This document shows, one piece after another, positions 4,888-49,325 of a stretch of DNA of 53,950 nt. The DNA comes from Thermoplasmata archaeon (GTDB taxonomy: Archaea; Thermoplasmatota; Thermoplasmata; UBA10834): the NCBI GenBank assembly GCA_049273895.1, contig JBASRQ010000165.1:1-53950 (forward strand), written 5' to 3'. Within the stretch, counting starts at the first letter, position 1, and each line of letters opens with the position of its first letter. The translations under genes and the position numbers were made by a program. Below the pieces are notes generated by a model. That model worked only from the letters and a program-made list of their open reading frames with translations, searched no databases and was not told where the DNA came from.

Positions 4888-4920
4888 AACTTGATCAATC
4901 CAGACAGTGGAAAGGGAGGT

Positions 4921-6561
4921 ATGAAATTGATAGGCCAAACACCGGTTTTTATCCTAAAAGAGGGAACCAAGAGAGAGAAAGGAAAAGGCGCGCAATTCAA
5001 CAACATCAGTGCCGCCAGAGCCATCGCGGATTCGGTCCGAAGCACACTAGGCCCGAGGGGCATGGACAAGATGCTCGTGGACAGCATGGGTGACGTTGTC
5101 ATAACGAACGACGGCGTGACGATTCTGAAGGAGATCGATGTTGAGCACCCGGCGGCAAAGATGCTCGTCGAGGTCGCGAAGACACAAGATGAGGAATGCG
5201 GAGACGGAACGACAACTGCGGTCATCCTCGCAGGCGAACTTCTCAAGAAGGCCGAGGCCCTGATCGAGCAGAACGTCCACCCGACGGTCATATCCGGTGG
5301 TTACAGGGCGGCCGCAACGAAGGCGAGGGAGATACTCGAAGATGTCGCGATTCCCGTGACCGCTGATGACAAGGAGACTCTCATGGACATCGCTCGCACG
5401 GCGATGATCTCGAAGAGCGTATCGGCATCTAGAGACCTGCTTGCAGACGTCGCAGTGAAGGCCGTGAGCGCAGTCGCAGAGAAGAAGGACGGCAAGTGGT
5501 TCGTGGACGATGACAACATTCAGATCGTCAAGAAACAGGGCGGCTCCATGGACGATACGAAGATGATCGCTGGAATAATCGTCGACAAGGAAGCCGTTCA
5601 CGCCGCAATGCCCAAAAGGGTCGAGAAGGCGAAGATCGCTCTCGTCGACTCAGCGCTCGAAGTCAAGAAGACCGAGATCGATGCGAAGATCGAGATCACA
5701 GACCCGAACCAGCTTCATGCGTTCCTCGACGAAGAGGAGAACATGCTGAGGAAGATGGTCGATGTTGTGAGGAAGTCAGGAGCCAGTGTCCTGTTCTGCC
5801 AGAAGGGCATCGACGACCTTGCTCAACACTACCTTGCGAAGGAGAAGATCTACGCAGTCCGCAGAGTCAAGAAGAGCGACATGGAGAAGCTGGCGAAGGC
5901 GACCGGGGCCAACCTTGTGACGAAGCTAGACGACCTCAAGGCCGACGACCTCGGCGATGCCGCGTTGATCGAGGAAAAGAAGATCGCGGACGACAGAATG
6001 ACATTCGTAACTGGCTGCAAGAACCCCAAGGCCGTTTCGGTTCTCATCAGGGGCGGCACTGAGCACGTCGTCGATGAAATCGAGCGCTCGTTGCATGACG
6101 CCATCAGCGTCGTCTCGGTCGCGATCGAGGACGGCAAGCTCGTCACGGGCGGGGGCTCGACGGCGAGTGAGCTGGCTCTCAAGTTGAGGGACTATGCAGC
6201 GTCAGTCGGTGGCAGAGAGCAGATCGCAATCGACGCGTTCGCGAGCGCCATGGAGGTCGTGCCAACGGCACTGTCCGAGAATGCGGGCCTCGACCCTATC
6301 GATGTGCTGATCGAGATGAGGCAAGCTCACAAGTCTGGCAAGAAGTACGCCGGCATCAACGTGTTCACTGGCAAAGTCGTGGACATGAGGAAGGAGAGGG
6401 TTCTGGAGCCGATCCGTGTTGGAAAGCAGGCAATCAGCTCTGCGACCGATGCGGCAGTCATGATCCTGAGGATCGATGACGTCATCGCATCTAAGGGCGG
6501 CGACAAGGGCGGCAGGGGACCCAAGGGACCCGACATGGGCGACGAGGGCGGAATGGACTGA
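4921..6561 (+). CDS. ths: thermosome subunit (group II chaperonin)
   Basis: [40 protein letters not shown] and a Gly/Met-rich tail. ATG 4921 is preferred over track TTG 4891 because of the SD directly upstream. Confidence 0.96.
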
Positions 6562-6671
6562 AGTCCGCCCCACGAAACCTCTTCAACTTCTTTGATTTAG
6601 TCAGATGACCGAACGGATAGGCAGCCGTGCAGACTGGCGATATGCCATCGAGTGCCTGGAGGCGACGGACA

Positions 6672-7280
6672 ATGGCAAATGAGGAAGCTAAGGAAGCAGC
6701 GACGCCCGAGGAGGGCGAGACAAAAGAGGCTGCGGTCACCGACCCTCTGGCGCTCAGGGACAAGAAGATCGCGGAGCTCACGGACGACCTGAAACGTCTT
6801 CAGGCCGAGTTCGACAACTACAAGAAGCGCAGCGAGAAGGAGTGGAGCGAGAGGTCAAGATACGCCACGCAGAATCTGATGAAGGATCTTCTGGCGGTCC
6901 TTGACTCCTTCGACAAGGCCATAGAGGACGCAAAGAGCAATCACAACAGAAACAGCCTGAAGGCTGGGCTAGAAGGCCTTCACAAACAGCTGCTGCAGAC
7001 GCTCCAGCGGGAGGGCCTGAAGGAGATCAAGGCGGAAGGCAAATTCGACCCGTTCGTCCATGAGGCCCTCATGAAGGAGGAGCGAAACGATGTTGAGGAG
7101 GGGAAGATCCTAGAGGTTTACCAAAAGGGCTACGCAATCGGACAAAAGCCATTGCGACCGACAAAGGTGAAGGTGGCCAAGAGCAAGGAGCCTGAGGTAG
7201 CACCAGAAGAGAACGGGAATCACGCTAATGATACGAAGACCAATCACAAGGCGGAAGAGGATGAGGAAGAGACCAAGTAG
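6672..7280 (+). CDS. grpE: nucleotide exchange factor GrpE
   Basis: Coiled-coil N-terminus, then FDPFVHEALMKEE...VYQKGYAIGQKPLRPTKVKV, and it lies immediately upstream of dnaK. The internal ATG 6672 (MANEEAKE) is preferred. Confidence 0.9.
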   Translation: MANEEAKEAATPEEGETKEAAVTDPLALRDKKIAELTDDLKRLQAEFDNYKKRSEKEWSERSRYATQNLMKDLLAVLDSFDKAIEDAKSNHNRNSLKAGLEGLHKQLLQTLQREGLKEIKAEGKFDPFVHEALMKEERNDVEEGKILEVYQKGYAIGQKPLRPTKVKVAKSKEPEVAPEENGNHANDTKTNHKAEEDEEETK

Positions 7281-7292
7281 AGGTGACTGAAC

Positions 7293-9179
7293 ATGGCAGC
7301 GTCAAAAGGCAAGATAATAGGAATCGACTTAGGGACCAGCAACTCAGCGGCGGCGGTGGTGGAAGCCGGAAGGCCGACCATCATCCCGAGCGCGGAGGGA
7401 ACAAGCCTCGGAGGAAAGGCGTTCCCATCATATGTGGCGTTCACAAAGGACGGCCAGATGCTTGTGGGAGAGCCCGCCAGAAGGCAGGCGGTGTCGAACC
7501 CCGAGGGCACCGTGATGGCCATCAAGCGGAAGATGGGGACTGACTACAAGGTCAGGGTATACGGCAAGGAGTACACACCCCAGCAGATCTCGGCGTTCAT
7601 CCTGCAGAAGATAAAGAGAGATGCGGAGGCCTACCTCGGAACGAAGGTCGAGAAGGCGGTCATCACTGTCCCTGCCTATTTCAATGACAACCAGAGACAG
7701 GCCACGAAGGATGCTGGACAGATTGCAGGCCTTGAGGTCGTAAGGATCATCAACGAGCCCACAGCCGCCGCACTTGCGTACGGCCTCGACAAGGCCGAGA
7801 AGGAGCAGAAGATACTGGTTTTCGACCTTGGCGGAGGCACGCTCGATGTCACGATCATGGAGTACGGCCAGGGAGTGTTCGAAGTCATTTCCACCAGCGG
7901 CGACACGCAGCTCGGCGGAACCGACATGGACAACGCCATCGTGGACTACATCGCGAAGGAGTTCAAGTCGGACACGGGCATCGACATCTCGAAGGACAAG
8001 ATGGCTGTCCAGAGGGCGAGAGAGGCGGGCGAGAAGGCGAAGATAGAGCTCTCATCAACGCTCGAGACAGAGATCAACCTTCCGTACCTCAGCGCAGACG
8101 CCTCCGGTCCCAAACACCTGACCATGAAGCTCACCCGAACCAAGCTGGAGGAGCTCGTCAGACCAACGGTCGAAAGGTGCAGGAAGCCGATGGCGCAGGC
8201 GTTGGATGACGCGAAGCTCGCGCCCGACAAGATAGATAAGGTCATTCTGGTCGGAGGGCCCACGAGAATGCCCATCGTTCAGAAGTTCGTCGATGAGATC
8301 GTTGGGAAGAAGACCGTGGGAGGAGTTGACCCGATGGAGTGCGTCGCGATGGGTGCTGCAATTCAGGGCGGCGTCCTTGAGGGAACGGTCAAAGACATCC
8401 TCCTGCTCGATGTGACTCCGCTTTCGCTCGGAGTGGAGACGCTCGGAAGCGTGTTCCACAAGCTCATCGAAAGAAACTCCACGATTCCGACAAGGAAGAG
8501 CGAGATCTTCAGCACTGCGGCAGACGGGCAGACGAGCGTCGAGATACATGTTCTCCAGGGAGAAAGACCGATGGCGCCCGACAACGTCACGCTCGGAAGA
8601 TTCCACCTCATCGGCATCCCGCCGGCACCGAGAGGGATCCCGCAGATCGAGGTCACATTCGACATTGATGCCAACGGCATCATCGATGTGAAGGCCAAGG
8701 ACCTCGGAACCGGTCAGGAACAGAAGATTACCATAACGGCCACAACGAAGCTCGGCAAGAACGAAATCGAGAAGATGGTCAAGGACGCGGAGAAGTTCGC
8801 AGACGAGGACCGCAAGCGGAAGGAGAAGGCCGAGCTCAAGAACAGAGCTGAGCAGAAGGCATACGAGGTCGCGAAGATCCTCGGGGAAATGGGAGACAAG
8901 GTCCCGCAAGATCTGAAGGACAAGCTGAACAAGCTTGCAGAGGAGGTCAAGGAAGCCGTCCAGACAGACGATGCCGCCAAGATCAAGGAGAAGCTGGACG
9001 AGTTGGAGAAGGCCCTGCTCGAAATCGGCAAGAGGGTCTACGAGGCTGCCGGCAGGCAGGCACAGCAGGCGCAGGGCCCACCGCCAGGGGCGGAGCCTGA
9101 GGAGCCCTCGGGCGGAGACAAGGGCTACGTCGATGCCGACTACAAGATCGTCGACGACGAGGAAGACAAGAAGAAGTAG
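7293..9179 (+). CDS. dnaK: molecular chaperone DnaK (Hsp70)
   Basis: [29 protein letters not shown] and an acidic C-terminal tail. Confidence 0.98.
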
Positions 9180-9266
9180 GCGCTCACCTGTAACCCACCA
9201 CTCCTGGACGCCTTCAATTTCATCATCCGCTCAGAGGAGCGCCCACAGACCAGGAAGGACTGAAGA

Positions 9267-10424
9267 ATGGCTCAGAAACGGGACTACTATGAGGTACTCG
9301 GCGTGCAGAGAGGGGCCTCGAAGGACGAGATCAAGCAGGCCTACAGAAAGCTCGCGATGAAGTACCATCCCGACATGAACAAGGAAAACGTCAAGGCAGC
9401 AGAGGAGAAGTTCAAGGAGATCTCCGAAGCGTACGAGGTCCTGGTCGATGATGACAAGAAGGCACGGTACGACCAGTTCGGCCATGCAGGCGTCGAAGGC
9501 ACATTCAGGACGGGAGGATTCGACTGGTCCGACTTCACGCACTTCGGAGACATCAGCGACATCTTCGGGGACCTTGGAGGGTTCGGTTTCGGCGGGGGCA
9601 TATTCGACCAGTTCTTCGGGAGGACCGCCAGGAGAGGACCTCAAGAAGGGCGATCGCTCAGATATGATGTCGAGGTGACGCTTGATGACATTGCCAAGGG
9701 CGTAGAGAAGGAAATCCGCATTCCTCATTCTGTCGCATGCAAGACCTGCGGAGGAGAGGGCGCCAAGGAAGGCGACTTCAGGACATGCCCGACGTGCAAA
9801 GGCCAAGGTCAAGTCCAGAGAGGCCAGAGGAGAGGAAACACGAATTTCGTGACGATCACCAACTGTCCGACTTGCGGCGGTACCGGAAAGCAGATTGTCC
9901 GTGAGTGCCCGTCGTGCAGAGGAGCTGGAGTCAGCCAAACGACGAGCAACATCAAAGTGTCCATCCCGAAAGGTGCCGATGAGGGCATGAGGCTGAGGAT
10001 AAGGGGTGCAGGAGAGGCGAGTTCGAACGGCGGACCACCCGGGGACCTGTATATAGTGGTGCACATGGCGGAGCACCCGCTCTTTGCAAGGGAAGGAAGA
10101 GACCTCTTCGTCGAAACGCCCATTTCTTTCACTCAAGCCGCGCTTGGAGATCAGGTCGAAGTGCCCACGCTCGATGGCACCGCGCTCGTCTCCATACCCG
10201 CTGGAACCCAGACCGGGACGGTATTCAGGCTGAAGGGCAAGGGCCTCCCGGACATGAGAGGCAGAGGCCAAGGGGACGAATTCGTCAAGGTGAGCGTTGT
10301 CACTCCATCGAAGCTGACCAATCAGCAGAAGGATCTTCTGAGACAGTTCTCGCAGTCCGTAGGGGGATACGAGAAATCGACCCCCCGTAAGTCCATCTTC
10401 AAGGGGTTCAGAAAGGGCGAATAG
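9267..10424 (+). CDS. dnaJ: molecular chaperone DnaJ (Hsp40)
   Basis: J domain with KYHPDMNK, a G/F-rich linker and four CxxCxGxG motifs ([32 protein letters not shown]). Confidence 0.96.
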
Positions 10425-10465
10425 TCAAAACCTATTTATCCAGAGTAGCACAGATACTACTCCAG

Positions 10466-11218
10466 ATGCGGACAATCGGACTGCTGACTGAGGACCCCAG
10501 GACTTATTTTGAGATGCTCGAAGCCCTCCGAGAACAGGGGTTGAAGGTGGTGTCTCTGGATTTCGGCGAATCGGTGCCCGCCAATGTCGGTGTGATCATT
10601 ACAACCGAAGAGGAGAAGGACAAGATCTCCTTCGACAAGATCGTGACCGACTCCGACCCGGATGCGGCGATTGCGCGAGCAAAGATGATGCTGCCCACCG
10701 AGAGCTCGGTCGGCGAACTGACGATTGGTATCGATCCCGGCGTCAGGCCAGGAGTAGCAGTTCTGGGAGACGGGGTAGTGCTGATGAGATCTCTAGCGAA
10801 ATCTCCCGAGGCTGTCAGGGAATTGGTGACCGAAGTAGTCCGGGAATATCCCGATGCGAATGTTGTCGTGAGGATTGGCCACGGCGACCGAACTAACAGG
10901 AACAGGATCTTCAACACTCTCTGGGACGAGGGACACATGCTGGAGATCGTGGACGAGAGGAACACAACTAAGAAGTCTCACACGCCCGACGAGGATGCTG
11001 CAGTTGAAATCGCAATGACGCCAGGCTACAAGCCGAAAAAGAAGCAAGAGACGGACCCGTGCCCCGGAGAAATCAGGAACATCCAACGCATAAGCCGCCT
11101 GGAGAGCTCAGGGAGCGTGACGGTCTCAAAAGCGCTGGCCAGGAAGGTCGCCAAGGGGGAGCTCACATTGAGCGATGCCATCGACATCCAGAAGAACGGC
11201 TCAAATGAGGCCGGCTAG
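10466..11218 (+). CDS. conserved archaeal protein, possible RNase H-fold (RuvC/YqgF-like) nuclease
   Basis: IGIDPGVRPGVAVLGDG resembles the first acidic strand of RuvC/YqgF-type nucleases. A TATA-like cctatttatcc (10431-10441) ends about 25 nt before the ATG. Confidence 0.4.
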   Translation: MRTIGLLTEDPRTYFEMLEALREQGLKVVSLDFGESVPANVGVIITTEEEKDKISFDKIVTDSDPDAAIARAKMMLPTESSVGELTIGIDPGVRPGVAVLGDGVVLMRSLAKSPEAVRELVTEVVREYPDANVVVRIGHGDRTNRNRIFNTLWDEGHMLEIVDERNTTKKSHTPDEDAAVEIAMTPGYKPKKKQETDPCPGEIRNIQRISRLESSGSVTVSKALARKVAKGELTLSDAIDIQKNGSNEAG

Positions 11219-12174
11219 AACAAGTGCTTCTCTGTCAACTTCGCGCAGCCACCAACGCCACATCTGATCGTCTCTATGCCCAATTCCTTGATTCGTTCTT
11301 CGACCTCGCGGACATGCTTAGGCTTCGTGTTAACGTAGACCGTGGCACCGGTATCGATTGAGAAGTAAGCAGGAAGCCCTTCCGAACGCATCTTCCTGAC
11401 TTCGAGGATCACCTTCACCGTCTCGGGTCGCCAGAGCATCATCTCGTCAACACTGGTCATCGTTATTCCGTGCAATATGAGGGAATCGCGCTCCGCGAGG
11501 ATCCCGATTTTCTCAATGCTGTGTTTTCGAATCGCATTCTCCATTTCAGCAAGAGCGCCATGAACGAAGGCCAACCTTGAATGAAAGAACGGAGAGGTCA
11601 GCACGGCTTTGTGCGCATTCTCGGTGAACTTGAATGCTGGTATCAAAGCGACCACGATGCCCATCTGGAAATCCTCAGAAGCAATCTGGTATGCGTAGGA
11701 TTCCTCGTCCTCGAATCCTGCCCTCCAACGAGAGAACGCGCCCGTGACGGATCGTGTGGCGGAGCCCGCACCTCTCCGTGCAATGACAGAGAGCCGTTCG
11801 AGAGAGAGTTTCAGTCCTGAGGCCTTTGATGCTGCGACCGCCAGCGCCGCAAAACCCGATGCCGAAGCGCCGAGACCAACGTTCGATGGGAAGTTGTTCT
11901 TCGAGACCATCTTGAACCTGAATTCCAGGCCGCTTCTTCTCCTCACCTCATCCACGACGCTAATGACACGTTCGAGCTCTCGACCAGAAAGCTTCTTTCC
12001 GTCGACAAAAGCGGTGTCTTTCTTGAACCTGCCGAATTCCAGAGTGGTGTGTGAAGCTGTCGGAGAAGTGGCCACGGATATGGAATCATGAAATGGTATC
12101 CTCAGCTTCTCGTCTTTGAGACCGTGGTACTTTATCAATCCCTGAATCGGGTGAGCGATTGCTGAGCCCTTCAT
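11215..12174 (-). CDS. diphosphomevalonate decarboxylase family (GHMP kinase superfamily) enzyme of the mevalonate pathway
   Basis: The N-terminal HPIQGLIKYHGLKDEKLRIP matches the MVD-family IALIKYWGKRD motif. The GHMP-type Gly/Ser loop NVGLGASASGFAAL is present. Confidence 0.7.
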   Translation of the reverse strand: MKGSAIAHPIQGLIKYHGLKDEKLRIPFHDSISVATSPTASHTTLEFGRFKKDTAFVDGKKLSGRELERVISVVDEVRRRSGLEFRFKMVSKNNFPSNVGLGASASGFAALAVAASKASGLKLSLERLSVIARRGAGSATRSVTGAFSRWRAGFEDEESYAYQIASEDFQMGIVVALIPAFKFTENAHKAVLTSPFFHSRLAFVHGALAEMENAIRKHSIEKIGILAERDSLILHGITMTSVDEMMLWRPETVKVILEVRKMRSEGLPAYFSIDTGATVYVNTKPKHVREVEERIKELGIETIRCGVGGCAKLTEKHLF

Positions 12175-33814: not shown

Positions 33815-34347
33815 AAGAGAGCGTCGACTACATCCTTGACGGCATCAAAAGAACCTTCGAGACCGAAATTGGGAACACCGACAAGTTCGTGGACCACATA
33901 ATCAGCTCGAGGAAGGTCTTCATCTACGGTGTAGGCAGGTCCGGCCTGATCGCAAAGGCCTTCGCCATAAGGCTGGTCCAGATGGGGCTCGAGGTGTTCT
34001 TCATAGGGGAGACCGTCACGCCCATTGTAGAAGAGGGCAATCTCGTCATCATCGTATCCTACACAGGAGAGACGATGTCGGCGATGCAGACGGCGAACAT
34101 CGTCAGAAGGGTTGGGGCGAAGGTCGTGTCGATCACTGCGAACGCGAACTCGAAGCTAGCAGGGGCATCGAACCTCGTCATCCTAATACATCCGCCGAAG
34201 GACGAAGAGCGAAAGCGACTCGCCCCCCTAGGGACCCTGTTCGAAGACGCCACGATGATTTACCTTGACGGGATAGTGAAGATGCTCATGGAAAAGCTGG
34301 GCCAGAGCGAGGGCGCAATGCGCAAACGCCACGCTATTTGGGTCTAG
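33811..34347 (+). CDS. hxlB: 6-phospho-3-hexuloisomerase (SIS domain)
   Basis: KVFIYGVGRSGLIAKAFAIRLVQMGLEVFFIGETVTP...GTLFEDATMIYLDGIV...RHAIW parallels archaeal PHI sequences. The start overlaps the upstream stop (ATGA). Confidence 0.78.
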   Translation: MKESVDYILDGIKRTFETEIGNTDKFVDHIISSRKVFIYGVGRSGLIAKAFAIRLVQMGLEVFFIGETVTPIVEEGNLVIIVSYTGETMSAMQTANIVRRVGAKVVSITANANSKLAGASNLVILIHPPKDEERKRLAPLGTLFEDATMIYLDGIVKMLMEKLGQSEGAMRKRHAIWV

Positions 34348-35551
34348 CCTTGTCGTCCAGGGGCGAACCCGCATCTGGGGTCTTCGGCTCCGCCTCCTGG
34401 CCATGCTTGTTCCACCTGAGCAGCATCAGCGCCAGGGTGGAAAATGCAATCACGGCAACGATGCTGCCCGAGACAACCATGATCATCGGCAGATTGGCCT
34501 TGAGCCAGTCTCTGACCCTGCTAGTGAATCCCTTCTCGTCTATGCCCAGAAACGATTCGTGCGAGATGGAGGTGGTCTCGTTCGATATCTCAAACGACGA
34601 GTGGAGTATCAGGCCGGTTCCAGTCGTATAGTAGGACGAGTTCATGGCGACTGGAGAATACTGCCCCGAGGTCTTCGCCAGCGGCTCCGAGCTATAGCGA
34701 TAGAACGCTTGCACGGTGCCGTCCTCCTTGGCGAAATTGATATCCTGGGTCGGAAGCCCCGTCTGGTTCAACCTGTGCGTGAAGCTGGGGCCGTATATCT
34801 CCTCGTTCACCCTACTCGACACCGTCGTCATCGAACCATTTGGGCTGGTCGAGTTCTCCCTGATCATGAACATGTTCGTGGAGCCCCCGCCCTTGAGCAG
34901 GTGCTCGATGGCGAGTCCAGTGAAGCTCAACTCCTTCAGTATGTCGAGAGTGCAGTTTATCTTCATCTCCGTCCGGCCAAGGATCGTGTAGCTGCCGAAG
35001 GAGTTGGAGTATGTCACTGGATATTGGGTGATTTGGAACGAGAAGGTCAGATTGGCCCAGTTCTCGACGCTCGCAATCGTGTCAGTCGTCTGATTGAACA
35101 GCGAGACATCGGCGCTCATCCGGATCTGAGCGTACTCGCCTGACTCGACCCCGTTGGCGAACTGAACGGCTGTCGTATTCCATGTGACATTGTGGTGTGA
35201 GTCGAGATAGCCAGTGTAGATCGCCTCGGAACGGGAAAAGACGCCGTCGTGATTGGTATCGTTGTACAGGTACACGATGGGAAGACTGACCTCAAAAGAG
35301 GGGGCGAACAGATTGGTGCTGTGCTGAAAGACAACTCTCGGCCAGTCGAAAGTCACAGCGGCTGTCAGGTTGCCCGAGACGAAGACGGCCTTGAAGTTGT
35401 CCACGGAATAGTCGAGGAAGTGCTGCTCGTCAGCAGCCTGCGCATCCCCTATGGACCAGAAAGCCAGGACTGCAGCGCAAAGAACAGCCGCGAGCGACCC
35501 GAGCCGTGACCACAAAGAACTCCTCCTCCTCAATATGACCTTAACGGGCAC
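34334..35551 (-). CDS. secreted/membrane-anchored glycoprotein candidate (signal peptide, 12 N-x-S/T sequons, C-terminal TM anchor)
   Basis: N-terminal RRRSSLWSRLGSLAAVLCAAVLAFWSIGDAQA, C-terminal hydrophobic MIMVVSGSIVAVIAFSTLALMLL plus a charged tail. GTG start. The TATA-like agcatatatcg (35575-35583, minus) lies about 25 nt upstream. Confidence 0.7.
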   Translation of the reverse strand: MPVKVILRRRSSLWSRLGSLAAVLCAAVLAFWSIGDAQAADEQHFLDYSVDNFKAVFVSGNLTAAVTFDWPRVVFQHSTNLFAPSFEVSLPIVYLYNDTNHDGVFSRSEAIYTGYLDSHHNVTWNTTAVQFANGVESGEYAQIRMSADVSLFNQTTDTIASVENWANLTFSFQITQYPVTYSNSFGSYTILGRTEMKINCTLDILKELSFTGLAIEHLLKGGGSTNMFMIRENSTSPNGSMTTVSSRVNEEIYGPSFTHRLNQTGLPTQDINFAKEDGTVQAFYRYSSEPLAKTSGQYSPVAMNSSYYTTGTGLILHSSFEISNETTSISHESFLGIDEKGFTSRVRDWLKANLPMIMVVSGSIVAVIAFSTLALMLLRWNKHGQEAEPKTPDAGSPLDDKARPK

Positions 35552-35610: not shown

Positions 35611-36267
35611 TCAGGGGGGCACAGATTTGACCTTGAGCTTCCTTGTCCTGGTTTTCTTTGGGAGGCCGTCTGGCTCCTCCTTGAATACTGCAAATGCCAG
35701 CTCCTTATAGCCGTCGCCAGCGAGCCTGAAGGCCTTTATATCCTCGTTGATCGGATCGATCACGATCGCCGTGTGATAAGGTTGGTCGAACATCGTGCGC
35801 TGCGTTTCCAGATCGGTCCGAGAGAGGAAGCAGGTGTGGCCTGGGTGGGAATGGTACCAGCCGACCAGGATGTAGTCGAAGCCCGAATCGTCCAGGTTGG
35901 TGAAGAGATTCGGGAACGCCTCAGGGTCGAACCTGACCTTCGAGGATGAGCTCCTCAACTCGGTTGTGCCTATGTCCCTAACGACAGAGTAGGCCCGGCC
36001 ATTCCATTTCCTGACCTCGCCCAAGAGAAATCCCATGACCTCTAGCCTCCGGGGGGCCTCTCTCTCGGCGTGCGCCCGTATCTTCTTCTCGGCGGTGGTG
36101 GACAGGTACAACTCGAAAGGGTTCCCGGATTCCGCCGCCTCGGCGTAGAGACCGATGGAATCGCCGGACAGCCAATCGTGGGGCGCGAGCTTCGCTCGCG
36201 CAGGAGGCTCCTTCTCCTCGATGGGCCTCTTCGTCTCCCTGACAATCCTTGGCCTAGCCAACCGCAT
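35611..36267 (-). CDS. JAMM/MPN+ metalloprotease (Rpn11/JAMM1-like isopeptidase candidate)
   Basis: Conserved Glu in LEVMGFLLGE; JAMM motif GWYHSHPGHTCFLSRTD (H-x-H-x7-S-x2-D). The start (GTG 36270 / ATG 36267) overlaps the E2 stop. Confidence 0.85.
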   Translation of the reverse strand: MRLARPRIVRETKRPIEEKEPPARAKLAPHDWLSGDSIGLYAEAAESGNPFELYLSTTAEKKIRAHAEREAPRRLEVMGFLLGEVRKWNGRAYSVVRDIGTTELRSSSSKVRFDPEAFPNLFTNLDDSGFDYILVGWYHSHPGHTCFLSRTDLETQRTMFDQPYHTAIVIDPINEDIKAFRLAGDGYKELAFAVFKEEPDGLPKKTRTRKLKVKSVPP

Positions 36268-36775
36268 CACCCACGATCCTCACACGCCTATCTGACTGGT
36301 CCATGACCACAGGGGGCTGGTACTTGTTCCTGTTGAAGTACGCGGCCGCCCTTGTGCACATGTCGTTCCCGAAGGGGTTCTTCGGATTTGGATTCACGAG
36401 AAGCGATTCTATGCCTTTGATGAACGTGACTAGGTTCGAGCTGAAATCCCAGTTCTCAAGGAGTTTCGTGCAGACATAGCCGCCGTCGTCTGGGGCCATT
36501 ATGTTGGGGTGGAATATCGCAGTCTGCCATTTCACAATCGGCTTCTCCATCGGGTAGTCTTCGCTGACAATCACTGCCATCCTGTGAACGAACCTGTGGA
36601 CGACCTTCCCCTGCTCCCAATCGGGCCCTGGCACTCTAAGGAATGTCACGTTAATCATCACAGGGAACGAGGCGAGCGCGGAATCAGAAATTGCTATGTG
36701 ATGCCTCAGCTCACGCTGGCACATCTCAATCTCGTTCTTCAACCGGACTCTGAGCAGGTCCAATGGCAGAGGCAT
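36254..36775 (-). CDS. ubiquitin-conjugating enzyme E2-like protein (UBC fold)
   Basis: YPMEKPIVKWQTAIFHPNIMAPDDGGYVCTKLLENWDFSSNLVTFIKGIESLLVNPNPKNPFGND matches the UBC consensus (YPxxPP.v.F.t.i.HPNi...G.iC...L...W......l..i..LL..PNp..P) almost position by position. Confidence 0.85.
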   Translation of the reverse strand: MPLPLDLLRVRLKNEIEMCQRELRHHIAISDSALASFPVMINVTFLRVPGPDWEQGKVVHRFVHRMAVIVSEDYPMEKPIVKWQTAIFHPNIMAPDDGGYVCTKLLENWDFSSNLVTFIKGIESLLVNPNPKNPFGNDMCTRAAAYFNRNKYQPPVVMDQSDRRVRIVGDAVG

Positions 36776-36780
36776 TTCGA

Positions 36781-37020
36781 CTAGCCGCCCTCGGGGTCCG
36801 GAATCAGCTCTAGAATGTCATCGCCTCTGATGCCGGCATCCAAGAGCGTGTTCCCTCCTCGGAGGACCTTCTTGCCCTTCCGAAGGACATATGCGCCCAT
36901 GTCCTTGCTCCAGAAAGTCGCCGCGCTTTCGATGACCTCGTCGACGGTGTTCTCGTTCTCGAGTTCCATCTCGACAGTGGCGCCGGTCTCGGCATTCTTG
37001 ACTTTGATCCTAATTGCCAA
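36781..37020 (-). CDS. ubiquitin-like beta-grasp protein ending in Gly-Gly
   Basis: 79 aa, MAIRIKVKNAETGATVEMELENENTVDEVIESAATFW...ILELIPDPEGG followed directly by TAG. TTG start with GGTGG 4-5 nt upstream. It lies 5 nt upstream of the E2 start. Confidence 0.8.
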   Translation of the reverse strand: MAIRIKVKNAETGATVEMELENENTVDEVIESAATFWSKDMGAYVLRKGKKVLRGGNTLLDAGIRGDDILELIPDPEGG

Positions 37021-37082
37021 AAAACCACCGTGCTACTGGACCGAATATGAGGTTATAGCGTTTTCTATTACCTGTAGCAGTC

Positions 37083-37874
37083 TCATGGCTTCAGGTGGAC
37101 GGGGCAATTCGGGTTGAGTGGGATCTCGAGTTCCTCGGACTGGTTCCGCTGCCCGTCGTAGTAGAAAGCGTTTGCGATGAGCATGTCCGGCCTGCTCGAA
37201 ACGACCTTGAGCGCCTCCCTCACCATGATCGCGGAAATCACGCTTGTGGTCGTGATCTCGGCCGCCAGCCTCGGCTCGTGGAACACGACATCCTTGCCAG
37301 TGCAGCTGAACCTCAGCTCTGCGACTTTCGAGTGGCTGCGGTTCATGCCGCATTGGACGCATGCACCAACCGGCGGCCTCGCGACCATAACCTTCCCGAG
37401 AAACCCTTCCATTCCCCCATCGATGTAGACCTTGCCCGCGTGGTATGAATGCGAGTTTGTGTGGATTCGCGCCTGAATATTGTCCAGGCAACCTAGTACG
37501 AGGTCATAATCCTTGAATGCCCCCTCCGGAAGGTCTTCGATCCTCTGGCGCATCGGGACGGGCCTCGCATCCGGGGAAATGCTCAGTATGCCACGGGCGA
37601 CAGCGTCTGCCTTGCTCGCCCTTCTTTGAGCGTCCTCCCTGCTGAAGAAGAGGCATCTGTTCAGATTGGAGCCGACAACATGGTCCATGTCGATGACGGT
37701 TATGTTCCTGAAGCCCGATAGAGCGAGGTTCTTGGCCACCTCGTTTCCGAGCGCTCCCGCGCCGACCATCATTACCTTGGACCTCGCGATGGACTCGAGG
37801 TCCAGCCAGCCGATTCGCTTTGACCGGTCGAACACGTCGTCGTCGATCGACCCCACTCTCAGCTGCTCCTCCAT
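37083..37874 (-). CDS. E1-like adenylyltransferase (ThiF/MoeB/UBA family)
   Basis: VGAGALGNEVAKNLALSGF, VIDMDHVVGSNLNRCLFF, LDNIQAR, zinc motif CVQCG, and Cys-Thr in RFSCTGKD. Confidence 0.88.
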   Translation of the reverse strand: MEEQLRVGSIDDDVFDRSKRIGWLDLESIARSKVMMVGAGALGNEVAKNLALSGFRNITVIDMDHVVGSNLNRCLFFSREDAQRRASKADAVARGILSISPDARPVPMRQRIEDLPEGAFKDYDLVLGCLDNIQARIHTNSHSYHAGKVYIDGGMEGFLGKVMVARPPVGACVQCGMNRSHSKVAELRFSCTGKDVVFHEPRLAAEITTTSVISAIMVREALKVVSSRPDMLIANAFYYDGQRNQSEELEIPLNPNCPVHLKP

Positions 37875-37898
37875 GATGCGGGAGGAATAGTCCTAGTA

Positions 37899-37908
37899 AA
37901 TTAAAACT
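37899..37908 (-). promoter_or_regulatory. TATA-like box for the E1-Ubl-E2-JAMM cassette (leaderless geometry)
   Basis: Minus-strand TTTTAATTTA ends about 25 nt upstream of the E1 ATG (37874). No SD lies between them. Confidence 0.5.
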
Positions 37909-37958
37909 TCGGCTATCTGGCGAGGGGGCGAATGCGCCGGCTTTCCATGCATTCGATC

Positions 37959-46889: not shown

Positions 46890-49325
46890 CTAAATCTCGG
46901 GCGAAGAAAGGCCTTCGAGCTCACGTTCTACGAGAGAGCCTATGTCATTGGATCCCACGCTCGTTAAGAGCTGCTTCGACTCCTCAAGCATCTTGCGCGC
47001 GCGGACAACATCACCGCTTTCCTTGAGCATCAGCCCGAACTCCATCTTGCGCATACCTAGGCTGCGAGGGACTTCCATGCCGTCAAGGGCTGCGATACTC
47101 TCGTAGTAGTACTCCTCGCTCGCCTTCCAGTTCTTGGATGATCTTTCGGCCATGCCCAGGTTCGCAGATGCAGCCGACATCCCGATCCGGTCGTCCAGCT
47201 CAGTGACGATGTCCAACGCTCGAAAGCAGTGTTCCTTTGCGAGCTCCAGCGAGCCTGATTTGATGAGTACTTCGGCCAGCGAGGTCAGCGCGTATGCCTT
47301 GGACCTCGGCTGACCGGTTTCGTCTGAAAGCCGGACGGCGTTCTCCAGGTGCAGCTTCGCCTCATCCGAGCGACCAAGCGAGGCGCACGCGATGCCCATG
47401 TTGACATAAACGTTGGCTAGTTCCACAGGGCCGAAGCCAGCGGCGCACTTCGAGAAGTGCTCGATAGCGTCTTCATACATGCCTCGACCGATGAAGACAT
47501 TGCCCAGCTCCATGTGCGCCAGAAGCATCCCCTTGGAATCCATAACGGCCATGGCATCCATCGCGCTCTTCTCGAGCAGTTCTTGGGCCTTCGCGTAGTT
47601 GCCGAGCTTGCTCTCGACTACTCCGAGACCGCGCAGCGCCTTCGCCCTGACGCCCGGGATCTCCTTCGCCTCATCAAGAGCGTCAGAGAAGAACTTCGAA
47701 GCCTTCTTCAGCTCATCCTTCTTGCTCTTGGTTTTGCCCATCTCGACAAGGGCCTCGGCCTTCTGGTTCGACTCCCCCTCTTTGGAAACCTTCTCGAGCA
47801 GAGGCCACGCATCATCGTCCTGACCAACGAGGCTCGCGGTTCTCGCCTTCAAGAGCATGACAGGATGCACATACTTCGGCTTGGACGCGTCGAAGAATGA
47901 AATGGTCTCCCAGAGGCGCTGCACATTGCCCTCGGCAAGCAGCTCGTCGCTCATCCTGGACATCATCATCTCGGCCTCGAGGACCCGGTTCGCGCGCATT
48001 AAGTGAAACAAACGCTCCTGCGGATTGTTGGCTTTGAGATAGTGGTCAGCAGCCGCGCTATGCCATCTGGCACGCTCCTCTTTCGTCATGGAGCTGTAGA
48101 CGAAATCGCGGAGCGAGGCGTGGATCTCGAACTTGCCGGGAGCCACCTCCCTGAGCATCGACCCCTTCCTAGCCTGGCGCAACTCCCTCGGAATCGCATC
48201 CGTCGGAAAAGGCTGCTGGAACACAGATGCGAGCTGCAAAAGAGACCTCTCATCCTCATGAAGACCTGCGTAGAATTTCTCCTCGAAGAACCTGGATATC
48301 TGGTATTTGGCCTCCGTGGGGCTCGACTCTGTGACCATCTCAAGCGAGAGCGGATGGCCGTGCGTGATGCGAGCCAACTCATCCGCGACCGACCCTTCGA
48401 TCCCTCTGGACCTCAACACCTCTAGGGCCGCCTTCTTCTCGAGGCCGCCGAGCTCTATCTCCGCGACCTCCTTTCTGGCGACCATGTCCGAGGAATCGTA
48501 GAACTTGGGGTCTTCCTCTGAGGTCACGACGATCTTCGCGGACCCGTTGCTGTGCCTCAGCATCTTGAGGAACTCCTGGAGGGTGTCGGAAGCATCGACG
48601 TCGTCGAACACGAAGGTGTAACCATCCTCAGCCAGCTCTTCGTTCAGGAGAAAGCTCAGCTCGCCGAGCTCATATCTGCCGGAGGCGAGATAGGCCGCCA
48701 ACTTCCTGCCGCCATTCTCCGCGAAGAATCTCCCCATGGAATCGGCGAGCGTTCGAGGGGCATCCCACGGCTTGGCCGAGTACCAGAAGATCCTCTGCCC
48801 GGACAATTCGGACACAGCCTTTGCCACGAGAGTCGTCTTGCCTATGCCAGCAATCCCTCTTATCGATAGGACCTTCAAATTCGGCGAGGCGAGCGCCTTG
48901 CTGACCGCCTCGAGTTCCTTCTCCCGCCCGTAGAATTCCCTGACCGAGGGCAGAGGAGATGACCGCTTGGCTGATTTCGCTTTCGAGATCGATTCGGGAG
49001 AAACCCGGGTGGAATCGACCATCGGCGTGATGTTGTTGTCCTTGATATACTGGAGCACATCGGCGGCCTTCGACTTGCCGCTCATCGTCAGGAAGTAGAC
49101 CTTTCGCCTGGCTTTCCCCCTGCGGACATGCTTCAGCTTCTCGTCCACAATCTCTGAAGCCTTGAGCTTCTTGAGCTCGATGGCCGCATGCGCCCTTGAT
49201 ATTGCGCATGCCTGTGAGATGCCGTCTTGGGTGACGTCGAACGGTGCTTCGTATTTGTCCTCGTACCTCACGTAGTTGTTCAAATGATACAGAATACGTT
49301 CGGAAACAGTCAGTTCACCGGCCAT
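46890..49325 (-). CDS. wHTH - STAND/NB-ARC-like P-loop NTPase - TPR repeat protein
   Basis: N-terminal wHTH-like segment (ISRAHAAIELKKL...RRKVYFLTMSG), Walker A IRGIAGIGKTTL, Walker B TFVFDDVD, and a C-terminal half made of TPR-like repeats (for example AKAYALTSLAEVLIKSGSLELAKEHCFRAL). Confidence 0.8.
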   Translation of the reverse strand: MAGELTVSERILYHLNNYVRYEDKYEAPFDVTQDGISQACAISRAHAAIELKKLKASEIVDEKLKHVRRGKARRKVYFLTMSGKSKAADVLQYIKDNNITPMVDSTRVSPESISKAKSAKRSSPLPSVREFYGREKELEAVSKALASPNLKVLSIRGIAGIGKTTLVAKAVSELSGQRIFWYSAKPWDAPRTLADSMGRFFAENGGRKLAAYLASGRYELGELSFLLNEELAEDGYTFVFDDVDASDTLQEFLKMLRHSNGSAKIVVTSEEDPKFYDSSDMVARKEVAEIELGGLEKKAALEVLRSRGIEGSVADELARITHGHPLSLEMVTESSPTEAKYQISRFFEEKFYAGLHEDERSLLQLASVFQQPFPTDAIPRELRQARKGSMLREVAPGKFEIHASLRDFVYSSMTKEERARWHSAAADHYLKANNPQERLFHLMRANRVLEAEMMMSRMSDELLAEGNVQRLWETISFFDASKPKYVHPVMLLKARTASLVGQDDDAWPLLEKVSKEGESNQKAEALVEMGKTKSKKDELKKASKFFSDALDEAKEIPGVRAKALRGLGVVESKLGNYAKAQELLEKSAMDAMAVMDSKGMLLAHMELGNVFIGRGMYEDAIEHFSKCAAGFGPVELANVYVNMGIACASLGRSDEAKLHLENAVRLSDETGQPRSKAYALTSLAEVLIKSGSLELAKEHCFRALDIVTELDDRIGMSAASANLGMAERSSKNWKASEEYYYESIAALDGMEVPRSLGMRKMEFGLMLKESGDVVRARKMLEESKQLLTSVGSNDIGSLVERELEGLSSPEI

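Follow-up and report, generated by a model that had tools for sequence, protein, structure and literature searches.

The four-gene locus

Positions 35,611 to 37,874 of the window (the whole 53,950-nt, or 54-kb, stretch of DNA that was analysed) hold four genes on a single strand, in the order E1-Ubl-E2-JAMM. The products are predicted to be an E1-like activating enzyme, a ubiquitin-like modifier (Ubl), an E2 conjugating enzyme and a JAMM protease. The features, taken from the open reading frame listing and from the minus strand read directly, are as follows.

37896-37910, minus strand: TATA-like, putative promoter box gaagTTTTAATTTAc, 5' of the E1 gene (read directly)
37083-37874, minus strand: E1 gene, 263 aa, ATG start
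37021-37082, minus strand: E1-Ubl spacer with conserved blocks GCTACAGGTA, GAAAACGCTATAAC, GTCCAGTA and GGTGG
36781-37020, minus strand: Ubl gene, 79 aa, TTG start, ending ...LIPDPEGG and then a stop codon
36254-36775, minus strand: E2 gene, 173 aa
35611-36270, minus strand: JAMM gene, 219 aa from a GTG at 36270, with an alternative ATG at 36267

The E1 and Ubl genes are separated by 62 nt and the Ubl and E2 genes by 5 nt, and the E2 and JAMM genes overlap by 14-17 nt. The coordinates, gaps and overlap proposed in an earlier, sequence-only reading of this DNA were all exact, and every motif it quoted was located in the four translations. It had also called the host Thermoplasmata-like, correctly, the nearest relative (~95% identity) being an uncultured Thermoplasmata chromosome. 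The match of the cassette to its families and the conservation of its orthologs are far beyond chance: the Pfam scores reach 158 bits (ThiF), 54.7 bits (UQ_con) and 48 bits (JAB), and orthologues are found in 24 genomes (tblastn E 1e-40 to 1e-170) in unchanged order. Across 60-84 orthologous loci, conservation of the catalytic residues is 97% or higher.

The upstream box includes ttttaattta at 37897-37906, centred ~28 nt before the E1 ATG, and most of the orthologous loci L001-L024 have its core, GGTTTAAyT, equally far from the E1 start. The sequence-only reading had placed a TATA-like box about 25 nt upstream of this ATG, and the conserved box is a candidate promoter. It recognised no other promoter-like element in the cassette, and here it was mistaken: a strongly conserved BRE/TATA-like element, GAAAACGCTATAAC at 37052-37065, precedes the Ubl gene, and a Shine-Dalgarno-like GGTGG (37025-37029) lies just 5' of the Ubl start. 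The spacer blocks are invariant or almost so across 11 divergent loci, in which neither RNA structure nor covariation of the spacer was found. The spacer is probably a dedicated Ubl promoter plus ribosome-binding site.

The E1-like activating enzyme

The E1 is about as large as MoeB and consists of one adenylation (Rossmann) domain, with motifs GAGALGN (38-44), SNLNR (69-73), CVQC (172-175) and SCTGKD (190-195). The Pfam ThiF profile spans residues 20-259. The GxGxxG loop (38-43) is accompanied by N70, R73, K88 and D131; G38-G43 and these four residues are kept in at least 59 of 60 loci, or at least 58 when the Zn ligands are included. The Zn site (C172/C175/C257/H260) is a C-C-C-H variant, and the crossover-loop Cys191 (FSC-T), 16 residues past the CxxC, is kept in 60/60 loci. 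The adenylation domain, Zn site and crossover-loop Cys place the protein in the E1-like adenylating superfamily (ThiF/MoeB/UBA).

Within that superfamily, the closest solved structures by phmmer are UBA2 (85 bits), with the CxxC and NPNC motifs in register, and UBA7, UBA3 and UBA1 (75-80 bits), versus 55-57 bits for MoeB and ThiF. The architecture is not that of a canonical E1. Past the CxxC, the chain re-enters the Rossmann fold after only ~30 residues, and its C-terminus lies 3 residues beyond the last Zn ligand; the protein has neither an inserted catalytic-Cys domain nor a C-terminal ubiquitin-fold domain. Canonical E1s load E2s via these two domains, and their absence counts against conjugation by this cassette; so does the location of Cys191, at the position of the ThiF/MoeB/UbaA crossover-loop Cys that is used in sulfur chemistry. 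By its sequence the protein is E1-like, nearest to canonical E1s, with a different architecture.

The size of the protein, and a Zn site and crossover-loop Cys like those of ThiF, MoeB and UbaA, are the main points in favor of a sulfur carrier or dual-use system of the SAMP kind. Adenylation of the Ubl would then lead mainly to its thiocarboxylation (to make cofactors or thiolate tRNA) or to "sampylation" without the E2, with the UBC protein as an accessory or regulatory partner instead of a thioester carrier. The characterised euryarchaeal SAMP/UbaA/JAMM1 system does work without an E2 (PMC4895103), and the E1 matches the NCBIfam ThiF, MoeB and UbaA models. These matches are low-scoring and all far under the cut-offs (64 bits vs 450 for UbaA), and together with the higher scores to UBA2, UBA3 and UBA1 they argue against such a system. 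It is considered improbable, also on account of the other three proteins.

The ubiquitin-like modifier

The AlphaFold2 model of the Ubl (pLDDT 89.8) has a beta-grasp fold. Its best Foldseek matches in the PDB are ubiquitin (TM 0.88, 29% identity), SUMO1, Hub1 and Caldiarchaeum Ub (TM 0.88); MoaD, ThiS and SAMP are not among the 50 matches listed, which speaks against a sulfur carrier. BLASTP aligns the Ubl to human ubiquitin over 68 aa at 28% identity, Gly-Gly included, and hhalign gives E 1.9e-5 for the pair. The score to Pfam ubiquitin (PF00240) is 17.3 bits, under the 25.4 cut-off, which counts against conjugation, and public annotations call the protein hypothetical, without a Pfam domain. 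A beta-grasp fold nearest those of ubiquitin and SUMO, with Gly-Gly at the C-terminus, gives the protein the fold features of the ubiquitin family.

G78-G79 is present in 79/79 loci. A lysine pair, K50/K51, occupies the position of ubiquitin K48, and K50 is found in 81/82 loci. Among ten syntenic genes, that of the Ubl shows the highest conservation, as expected because a modifier must fit several partners. The reading frame here ends at the Gly-Gly, that is, in the mature form. Among 122 distinct Ubl genes, however, 41 carry non-conserved tails of 1-13 aa past the invariant PDPEGG, which implies a processing step. Caldiarchaeum pro-ubiquitin is likewise cut by its own Rpn11 (PMC5654768, PMC6043591), and Bil Ubls have similar tailed precursors (10.1101/2023.09.26.559546).

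The E2 conjugating enzyme

The E2 carries HPN (89-91), GGYVC (98-102), W109 and the PNP loop NPNPKNP (128-134). Its score to Pfam UQ_con (PF00179) is 54.7 bits (E 1e-14), above the gathering score of 27, a cut-off also passed by the orthologues in loci L025, L026 and L027. The best phmmer matches in the PDB are UbcH10, Ubc13 and Rad6 (E ~5e-12). In the AlphaFold2 model (pLDDT 80.4) the C-terminal 15 residues are disordered, and the best 50 Foldseek matches listed from the PDB are all eukaryotic E2s (probability 1.00). Superposition on solved E2s is moderate (TM 0.58-0.65), a point against conjugation. The HPN region aligns with HPN...C85 of UbcH5b, and profile, fold, HPN and Cys agree in placing the protein in the UBC family.

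H89, N91 and C102 are present in 84/84 loci. This invariance stands against a sulfur-carrier role and also argues against a non-catalytic UEV-like partner, which would not be expected to keep the Cys and the HPN. The sequence-only reading would have been undone by a fold other than UBC or by an unconserved Cys; neither was found, and the structure searches that it proposed matched the Ubl and E2 models to ubiquitin/SUMO and to E2s. On the evidence of the model and the alignments, the protein is a canonical UBC-fold conjugating enzyme with Cys102 as its predicted catalytic residue.

The JAMM protease

After an N-terminal extension of ~50 aa, the JAMM protein contains E77 and then HSHPGHTCFLSRTD at 140-153 (H140-S-H142, S150, D153), motif residues that are kept in 77-79 of 79 loci. 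Pfam assigns 48 bits to JAB and 35 bits to Prok-JAB. In the PDB the closest phmmer matches are Rpn11 (53 bits), the Caldiarchaeum Rpn11 homologue (6fjv, 45 bits) and CSN5 (43 bits), followed by AMSH, with no JAMM1/SAMP-type chain among the matches listed. The NCBIfam desampylase model gives 49 bits, short of its cut-off of 130, again not as in a SAMP-like system. By its motif and its greater similarity to Rpn11 and CSN5, it is a predicted Rpn11-like JAMM/MPN+ metalloprotease.

Distribution and genomic context

The cassette occurs in about 264 species-level genomes, mostly Thermoplasmatota, Methanomassiliicoccales among them. Some of the contigs encode the exact E2 of Methanomassiliicoccus luminyensis, an orthologue that RefSeq names "ubiquitin-conjugating enzyme E2". 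A survey of co-occurrence, as suggested earlier, found tight linkage: for the 122 distinct Ubl genes, the same locus holds the E2 in 120, the JAMM in 116 and the E1 in 100, and five genomes with a non-adjacent E1 have an orthologous E1 on another contig. The cassette is real, widespread in Thermoplasmatota and found in a gut methanogen that has been cultured; its activity is predicted.

A ten-gene synteny is kept, within which the identity of the cassette declines in parallel with that of the flanking genes. The neighbors include PAN, chaperones, ribosomal proteins and metabolic genes. The orthologues in this conserved synteny are under strong purifying selection. Because of the synteny, the ordinary GC content (equal to that of the surroundings), the lack of relatives found on viral contigs and the lack of PADLOC defence matches in the flanking genes, the cassette has a vertical, housekeeping character; it appears to be chromosomal and vertically inherited. 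The conserved neighborhood has no rhodanese, MoaE, ThiG/ThiH or tRNA-thiolation gene, a further point against a sulfur carrier. The context of the locus points to no target and no phenotype.

The same context bears on two other explanations. One is antiviral defence of the Bil or CBASS kind, in which the Ubl would be put on phage or virus proteins, an option raised by analogy in the sequence-only reading. The set of E1, E2, Ubl and JAB does parallel BilABCD, down to the tailed Ubl precursors (10.1101/2023.09.26.559546), and the E1 weakly matches the E1 half of the PADLOC "E1-E2" (Cap2) models (~46 bits). PADLOC gives zero matches for the E2, however, and a fixed housekeeping neighborhood, co-divergent across the whole class, differs from the patchy islands typical of defence systems. 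With no defence genes in the flanks, no viral-contig relatives and no compositional anomaly, the genomic context disfavors this option, which is judged highly unlikely. The other explanation, a recent eukaryotic acquisition or an assembly contaminant without function in the archaeon, draws on the eukaryotic identity of the best solved-structure matches for all four proteins. Sequence identities to eukaryotic proteins are only 20-33%, and the operon, which has the GC content of its surroundings, contains genes that overlap, starts other than ATG and boxes resembling archaeal promoters. Given the conserved synteny in ~264 species-level genomes and the strong purifying selection, acquisition or contamination is effectively refuted.

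A proposed conjugation pathway

The cassette is thus quite likely a chromosomal, vertically inherited, minimal eukaryote-like ubiquitin-type conjugation system, neither a sulfur carrier nor a mobile defence system. This agrees with the proposal that it is an E1-E2 conjugation module rather than a MoaD/ThiS-MoeB locus, which is supported by the searches with all four proteins and by residue conservation. The analysis computed the folds and families of the proteins, the conservation of their residues, the linkage and distribution of the genes and the precursor tails; all of the chemical steps, independence from an E3, the formation of chains and the role in the cell are inferred.

In the proposed pathway, the Ubl would be mature here with a free Gly-Gly, and about a third of related lineages would need a tail of 1-13 residues removed. 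The E1, presumably a homodimer, would bind ATP-Mg, adenylate Gly79 and load the Ubl as a thioester on Cys191. The Ubl would then move to Cys102 of the E2, where Asn91 of the HPN would be placed for oxyanion stabilisation. The E2 would transfer the Ubl to target lysines, either free of an E3 or with an unlinked factor. Ubc9 is able to discharge without an E3, and the Caldiarchaeum E1 and E2 do so in auto-modification. Chains may be built on the conserved K50/K51. The Rpn11-like JAMM would remove the Ubl and, where tailed precursors are present, would also mature them. As for the role, one might guess that cellular proteins are regulated, or turned over in connection with the proteasome.

The lack of a recognisable RING E3, remarked on before, was upheld for the 54-kb window and the related loci listed. 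When the six reading frames of the window were searched by regex, none contained a RING-like C3H(C/H)C3 pattern. RING proteins are also absent next to the cassette in 10 related loci with neighbors listed, next to the unlinked E1s, and in 11 further loci listed.

It is possible, if doubtful, that the E1-Ubl-E2-Rpn11-like module is an ancient form of E3-independent ubiquitylation, vertically inherited since at least the Thermoplasmatota common ancestor and common to the DPANN Micrarchaeota. An E1-to-E2 relay and an Rpn11-type deubiquitylase would in that case have existed before the Asgard/TACK lineages arose and before RING E3s were recruited, and the cassette would be the simplest extant stage toward the eukaryotic ubiquitin system. 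An ancestral E3-free system would then be open to experiment in cultured M. luminyensis.

Comparison with known systems

The novelty implied by the sequence-only reading holds in part. A deep-branching "Ca. Thermoplasmatota E2" clade (bioRxiv 10.1101/2023.07.25.550441) and E3-less Ub/E1/E2/JAMM operons ("JAMM-3", PMC6043591) have been mentioned in passing, so novelty is lower than implied, but no characterisation of either was found in the literature.

The haloarchaeal SAMP/UbaA/HvJAMM1 system resembles the cassette in its beta-grasp Gly-Gly modifier, MoeB-sized E1 with a crossover-loop Cys, and JAMM deconjugase (PMC4895103, PMC4443979). It has no E2, whereas the cassette has a tightly linked UBC E2 with an invariant Cys, an E1 and a JAMM far below the UbaA and desampylase cut-offs, and a Ubl that is ubiquitin/SUMO-like rather than MoaD/ThiS-like. 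The cassette thus lacks the combination that marks sampylation (UbaA E1, JAMM1 desampylase, no E2).

Bacterial BilABCD (type I/II), the related E1-E2-Ubl-JAB operons and RING-containing bacterial operons share the four functional roles, a conserved Gly with variable tails, a JAB maturase/deconjugase and an E1 without a UFD (PMC1779556; 10.1101/2023.09.26.559546). The Bil E2 has a CEHH-type active site, no HPN, and belongs to other families, unlike the HPN-containing E2 of the cassette (10.1101/2023.09.26.559546). The E1 also lacks the BilD architecture of inactive and active adenylation domains plus a Cys domain (IAD+AAD+CYS), and Bil is patchy and defence-associated. Neither the defence E2 and E1-E2 model assignments nor the defence-island context of BilABCD and CBASS Cap2 applies to the cassette. 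The RING-containing bacterial locus of Armatimonadia (L027) differs in having an extra second E2, a trypsin-like protease, a YukD-type Ubl, a JAB-LysM protein and a Prok-RING_1 protein.

The operons of Caldiarchaeum subterraneum (Aigarchaeota) and of Asgard archaea are like the cassette in their Gly-Gly Ubl, E2 with HPN and Cys, UBA2/UBA3-like E1 adenylation domain and Rpn11-like JAMM (PMC3082918, PMC5654768, PMC6043591). They also share the Ubl-E2 adjacency and tailed precursors implying JAMM maturation, the latter in related lineages of the cassette. The linked RING E3 of a complete operon of this type was not found here: the Caldiarchaeum operon carries the RING gene srfp, and the cassette and the 54-kb window have none. 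The Caldiarchaeum E1 is reported to have a ~60-aa catalytic-Cys domain and a Ubl-like C-terminal domain, and the 263-aa E1 of the cassette has neither (PMC5654768; PMC11354881). The Caldiarchaeum order is rpn11(-), ubl, e2, e1, srfp, compared with E1-Ubl-E2-JAMM on a single strand. The hosts are TACK or Asgard archaea, with Ubls ending ...TVGG, and here Thermoplasmatota, with PDPEGG.

By description, the cassette fits exactly the JAMM-3 group, which is closer to Rpn11/CSN5 than JAMM-1/2 and comes with Ub, E1 and E2 and no E3 (PMC6043591). The likeness is one of description, JAMM-3 being presented there without taxa, sequences or operon analysis.

Genes and products of the cassette

Four consecutive minus-strand genes, coding for an E1, a ubiquitin-like modifier (Ubl), an E2 and a JAMM protease, had been proposed in a sequence-only reading of the window. 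A mechanical ORF list and a reading of the minus-strand sequence, from which the coordinates below are taken, confirm them at 35611-37874, with gaps of 62 and 5 nt and an overlap of 14-17 nt between the E2 and JAMM genes. All the motifs quoted for the four proteins were also found.

Features of the cassette (positions in the window)
37083-37874, minus strand: E1, 263 aa, ATG start
37021-37082, minus strand: E1-Ubl spacer, high primary-sequence conservation, with equivalents in the orthologous loci L001-L024
36781-37020, minus strand: Ubl, 79 aa, TTG start, C-terminus ...LIPDPEGG-stop
36254-36775, minus strand: E2, 173 aa
35611-36270, minus strand: JAMM, 219 aa from GTG at 36270; ATG at 36267

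Pfam recognizes ThiF (158 bits), UQ_con (54.7 bits; cut-off 27) and JAB (48 bits) in the cassette, and its GC content and skew are like those of the remainder of the window.

The fold and the catalytic cysteine had been singled out beforehand as the points on which the E2 assignment could fall. Its fold is that of the UBC family, and Cys102, together with His89 and Asn91, is kept in 84 of 84 loci. The best sequence matches among solved structures are the eukaryotic UbcH10, Ubc13 and Rad6 (E ~5e-12). For an AlphaFold2 model built from 26 homologues (pLDDT 80.4), the 50 best Foldseek matches in the PDB are eukaryotic E2s without exception (probability 1.00, TM 0.58-0.65, 20-27% identity). When set against UbcH5b, the E2 aligns along DYP.KP...HPNI...C...W...PNP..P with 33% identity over 82 residues. 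Automatic annotation labels the E2s already. The E2 matched none of the PADLOC models.

Two additional E2 cysteines are well conserved in a set of loci that is almost all archaeal: C19 in helix 1 (82 of 83 loci) and C140 (82 of 82). Both are missing from the E2s of the bacterial locus L027. Canonical E2s are not known to have these residues; the two cysteines may serve in a disulfide or a metal site. An extra E2-like gene is present in some Thermoplasmata loci, which hints at E2 paralogy in parts of Thermoplasmatota. There are two E2 matches in L084, and in L115 an E2-like match on the opposite strand adjoins an unlinked E1.

The E1 scores highest against UBA2, the SUMO E1 subunit (85 bits), then UBA7, UBA3, UBA1 and UBA6 (75-80 bits), and drops to 55-57 bits against MoeB and ThiF of E. 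coli. Its scores with the curated NCBIfam models of ThiF, MoeB and UbaA, the SAMP activator, lie far under their cut-offs. The protein is a bare adenylation domain: the ThiF profile spans residues 20-259 of 263, leaving no space for either an inserted Cys domain or a ubiquitin-fold domain (UFD) at the C-terminus. C172, C175, C257 and H260 are the Zn ligands, and C191, which lies on a short crossover loop (FSC-T) and is kept in 60 of 60 loci, is the sole candidate for the catalytic Cys. We take its position to be that of the loop Cys of ThiF, MoeB and UbaA and of the "C-T" catalytic Cys of canonical E1s.

The JAMM protein is closest to Rpn11 (53 bits), followed by the Caldiarchaeum Rpn11 homologue 6fjv (45 bits), CSN5 and AMSH, and it falls under the haloarchaeal desampylase cut-off (49 vs 130 bits). 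Its E...HSH...S..D motif is complete and invariant across loci.

The modifier and its precursor tails

The Ubl is confidently modeled as a beta-grasp (pLDDT 89.8). Its best Foldseek matches are ubiquitin (TM 0.88, 29% identity), SUMO1, Hub1 and Caldiarchaeum ubiquitin (TM 0.88), and no MoaD, ThiS or SAMP is among the 50 structure matches listed. BLASTP aligns it to human ubiquitin over 68 residues at 28% identity, terminal GG included, and places K51 opposite ubiquitin K48. The Pfam ubiquitin match is sub-threshold (17.3 bits vs a cut-off of 25.4), and public annotation calls the protein "hypothetical" throughout. It is the most conserved product of the ten syntenic genes, with 78% identity where the E2 has 64%, the E1 60% and the JAMM 50%.

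After de-duplication, 122 distinct Ubl genes could be compared at the C-terminus. PDP(E/T)GG is present in all of them except the divergent Desulfurococcales Ubl (L182). A stop follows directly after GG in 80, including the Ubl of the window, and 41 add 1-13 non-conserved residues (e.g. L025 5710-5997, L193 4760-5017); the Methanomassiliicoccus luminyensis-type Ubl ends GG-AHAPSR. A conserved GG followed by a variable tail implies that the C-terminus of the modifier would have to be exposed by a protease. The tailed Ubls are thus predicted to be precursors that need C-terminal processing, and the Ubl of the window would be made mature. Caldiarchaeum pro-ubiquitin undergoes the same kind of cut by its own Rpn11 homologue (PMC5654768, PMC6043591), and similar C-terminal tails occur on Bil Ubls (10.1101/2023.09.26.559546). 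The tails support the functional importance of Gly79 and a role of the linked JAMM as putative Ubl maturase.

Promoter-like elements and start codons

The TATA-like box noticed upstream of the E1 gene is borne out, being kept as GGTTTAAyT ~27-33 nt before the ATG. The accompanying claim, that no further promoter-like element exists inside the cassette, is contradicted by the E1-Ubl spacer, which is among the best-conserved non-coding stretches of the locus. It contains, in order, GCTACAGGTA, GAAAAC.ATATAAC, GTCCAGTA and GGTGG. The second block is BRE/TATA-like and lies ~35-41 nt before the Ubl start; the last is Shine-Dalgarno-like and lies 4-5 nt before it. The spacer thus probably holds a dedicated Ubl promoter and ribosome-binding site, which would allow the Ubl to be made in excess over its enzymes. 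A structured RNA was ruled out (RNAalifold -1.2 kcal/mol, no covariation), and an Rfam search of the window found nothing.

Most lineages start the Ubl gene with a near-cognate codon: TTG in the window (37018-37020), and CTG in several other loci, where no in-frame ATG, GTG or TTG precedes the conserved N-terminal strand. The observation covers the aligned position in L005, L006, L008, L013, L019, L020 and L024; ATG is found only in L021, L023 and L026. Such codons suggest that translation of the modifier gene is initiated in a non-canonical or purposely weak way.

Neighborhood, inheritance and the search for an E3

Scanning a genome collection with the E2 returned 27 loci. A ten-gene order is maintained in ~22 Thermoplasmata species: MttB-like, (TrxR-like), M29 peptidase, E1, Ubl, E2, JAMM, a 405-aa membrane glycoprotein (TM405) and, on the opposite strand, SIS-domain and AP-endonuclease-2-like (AP2) genes. 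Identities of the cassette proteins drop in parallel with those of the flanking genes. The nearest relative, at ~95% identity, is an uncultured Thermoplasmata archaeon with a complete chromosome of 1.98 Mb (OY970070.1). The remaining genes of the window are housekeeping genes (PAN, TruD, thermosome, GrpE/DnaK/DnaJ, ribosomal proteins, tRNA-Pro).

The flanking genes, like the E2, gave no PADLOC match, and no cassette relative was found on viral contigs. These results point to a chromosomal, vertically inherited cassette and argue against a mobile defense island. Membership in the Bil or CBASS systems was rejected on curated models and on the defining features of those systems. Because the context is housekeeping and inheritance vertical, regulation or turnover of cellular proteins is favored over antiviral defense as the role of the cassette.

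PAN (AAA + proteasomal ATPase OB domain; 1419-2627, minus strand) and a thermosome-GrpE-DnaK-DnaJ block (4891-10424) lie 25-34 kb from the cassette. They are possible downstream machinery; linkage to the cassette was not seen. An 811-aa STAND-type NTPase (NB-ARC/AAA_16) with C-terminal TPR repeats is encoded at 46890-49325 (minus strand), ~9 kb from the cassette. It weakly matches the PADLOC candidate systems PDC-S27 and PDC-M16A and is unlinked to the cassette in related loci.

The M29, TM405 and SIS/AP2 genes were rejected as functional partners and are read as inherited gene order. M29 and TM405 are linked in the closest lineage only, TM405 being weakly matched in a few further loci; synteny of the opposite-strand SIS/AP2 genes reaches Methanomassiliicoccales and partly Sysuiplasma. 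The TM405 gene (34334-35551, minus strand) follows the JAMM gene in the same direction after 59 nt. Its 405-aa product begins with a signal or TM segment, ends in a TM anchor and bears ~12 N-x-S/T sequons; it has no match in Pfam, NCBIfam or PADLOC and is probably an unrelated surface glycoprotein.

The absence of a linked RING E3, as first proposed, holds for the six frames of the 54-kb window and for the neighbors in the related loci given below. A regex scan of the six frames found no RING-like pattern; the frames rich in CxxC/CxxH belong to DnaJ, radical-SAM and Fe-S proteins, to small zinc ribbons at a distance from the cassette, far away in the window, and to the E1 itself. No conserved extra partner was found beside the cassette in 10 E1-less loci and 11 further loci, unlinked E1s included. 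All-against-all clustering of the neighborhood ORFs was noisy, as overlapping-frame ORFs are co-conserved in GC-rich DNA. A RING is detectable by these methods when present, since a Prok-RING_1 protein with a predicted membrane domain was found in L027 (Armatimonadia bacterium, 5782-12128). This operon also encodes two UQ_con E2s, a trypsin-like peptidase, a YukD-type Ubl, a 408-aa ThiF E1, HicB and a JAB-LysM fusion, and is a RING-containing bacterial relative of the archaeal cassette.

Distribution

A broader scan, with an alignment query of archaeal sequences only, found a relative in 264 species-level genomes, the best 80 of which are all Thermoplasmatota. The invariant core is the Ubl-E2-JAMM trio, with the E1 directly upstream in most loci. 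A set of low-GC lineages has the trio alone, in other contexts. Five genomes with a stand-alone trio carry an orthologous E1 on a separate contig, so the E1 belongs to the system even when unlinked.

The full cassette followed by opposite-strand SIS and AP2 genes extends across Methanomassiliicoccales (Methanomassiliicoccaceae, Methanomethylophilaceae, Ca. Methanoplasma), and in Sysuiplasma it is followed by AP2 only. Rearranged cassettes occur in Micrarchaeota and one Desulfurococcales MAG. In four Micrarchaeota loci (L163, L164, L167, L171) the E1 is followed by an opposite-strand JAMM gene and then by a Ubl whose C-terminus reads (L/M)(I/M)PDPTGG, showing that the same modifier tail is conserved across archaeal phyla. 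A UBC E2 directly follows the Ubl in L163 and L164; L167 and L171 end after the Ubl. More distant E2-E1-JAMM sets exist in some bacteria. The archaeal gene order E1-Ubl-E2-JAMM-SIS-AP2 also appears, at 46-56% identity, in three human-gut "cleanbin" assemblies labeled Anaerovoracaceae bacterium, Bacteroides salyersiae and Eggerthellaceae bacterium (L140, L150, L151), whose contigs most likely represent Methanomassiliicoccales DNA binned in error.

A scan for cultured carriers with a single protein returned MAGs only. A homologue search returned P0278, named by NCBI [quoted passage not shown], an assignment to a cultured human-gut methanogen. The contigs encoding exactly this protein (L193-L195) carry ThiF-E1, an 85-aa unannotated ORF, UQ_con, JAB and opposite-strand SIS and AP_endonuc_2 genes. 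The L193 cassette sits between a DDE transposase, with a tRNA-synt_1b gene intervening, and an IS605 OrfB/TnpB-like gene, and its TrpRS-like and SIS/AP2 neighbors are kept.

Proposed mechanism

The best-supported reading is a classical E1-E2 relay in minimal form, each chemical step of which is predicted from sequence. The reading is based on fold, motifs, conservation, linkage and the Ubl tails. The E1 would adenylate Gly79 of the Ubl, which would then form a thioester on Cys191 and pass by trans-thioesterification to Cys102 of the E2. A target lysine, helped by the HPN asparagine, would attack the E2 thioester (aminolysis). The JAMM protease would reverse the modification and also mature the Ubl precursor where there is one.

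Ubc9 can modify consensus sites directly. Discharge of the E2 without an E3 is plausible because of this precedent and by analogy with Caldiarchaeum, whose E1 and E2 carry out auto-ubiquitylation without the RING protein (PMC5654768). An E3 encoded away from the cassette may take part instead. BilD, which also has no UFD, binds its E2 beside the adenylation site (10.1101/2023.09.26.559546).

Significance and comparison with known systems

It is still an open question how E1-only sulfur-carrier systems gave rise to the three-step E1-E2-E3 ubiquitin cascade. To our knowledge, the archaeal ubiquitin examples studied to date (Caldiarchaeum, Asgard) already have RING E3s, and almost all come from uncultured organisms, the one cultured Asgard isolate growing in syntrophic co-culture only. 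The cassette represents a simpler state, with a MoeB-sized UBA2/UBA3-like E1, a canonical UBC E2, a ubiquitin-fold tag, an Rpn11-like protease and no linked E3, conserved across hundreds of Thermoplasmatota species. It raises the questions of whether an E2 acts without an E3, how a domain-less E1 loads an E2 and what ubiquitin-type tagging does in a prokaryotic cell. These can be addressed in a cultured archaeon, as contigs with the exact E2 of M. luminyensis carry the cassette, and also in vitro, the proteins being small and single-domain. The common statement that "euryarchaeal Ubl conjugation has no E2" fails for Thermoplasmatota.

Prior art exists but is thin. Passages of Fuchs et al. 2018 (PMC6043591) describe "JAMM-3" prokaryotic JAMMs, nearer Rpn11, in operons with Ub, E1 and E2 and without E3, and name no taxa for them. 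The cassette is not reported by Grau-Bove et al. 2015. A search of the full-text literature for Thermoplasmata/Thermoplasmatota, Methanomassiliicoccales or Micrarchaeota together with ubiquitin found no description or characterization. The cassette is no categorical surprise and is of interest chiefly to specialists, for two reasons: no simpler archaeal system with a canonical E2 is known, and a cultured organism carries this one.

Kinship was judged by relative bit scores against PDB chains and by a published tree statement, which puts a "Ca. Thermoplasmatota E2" on a deep branch within the archaeal E2/UEV clade (2023 preprint, 10.1101/2023.07.25.550441). Membership in the SAMP/UbaA system was rejected on the curated models and on its defining features. 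The closest parallel is with the Caldiarchaeum and Asgard ubiquitylation operons, whose way of working the cassette would share; it differs from them in having no RING E3, in its domain-less E1 and in its host, a member of Thermoplasmatota.
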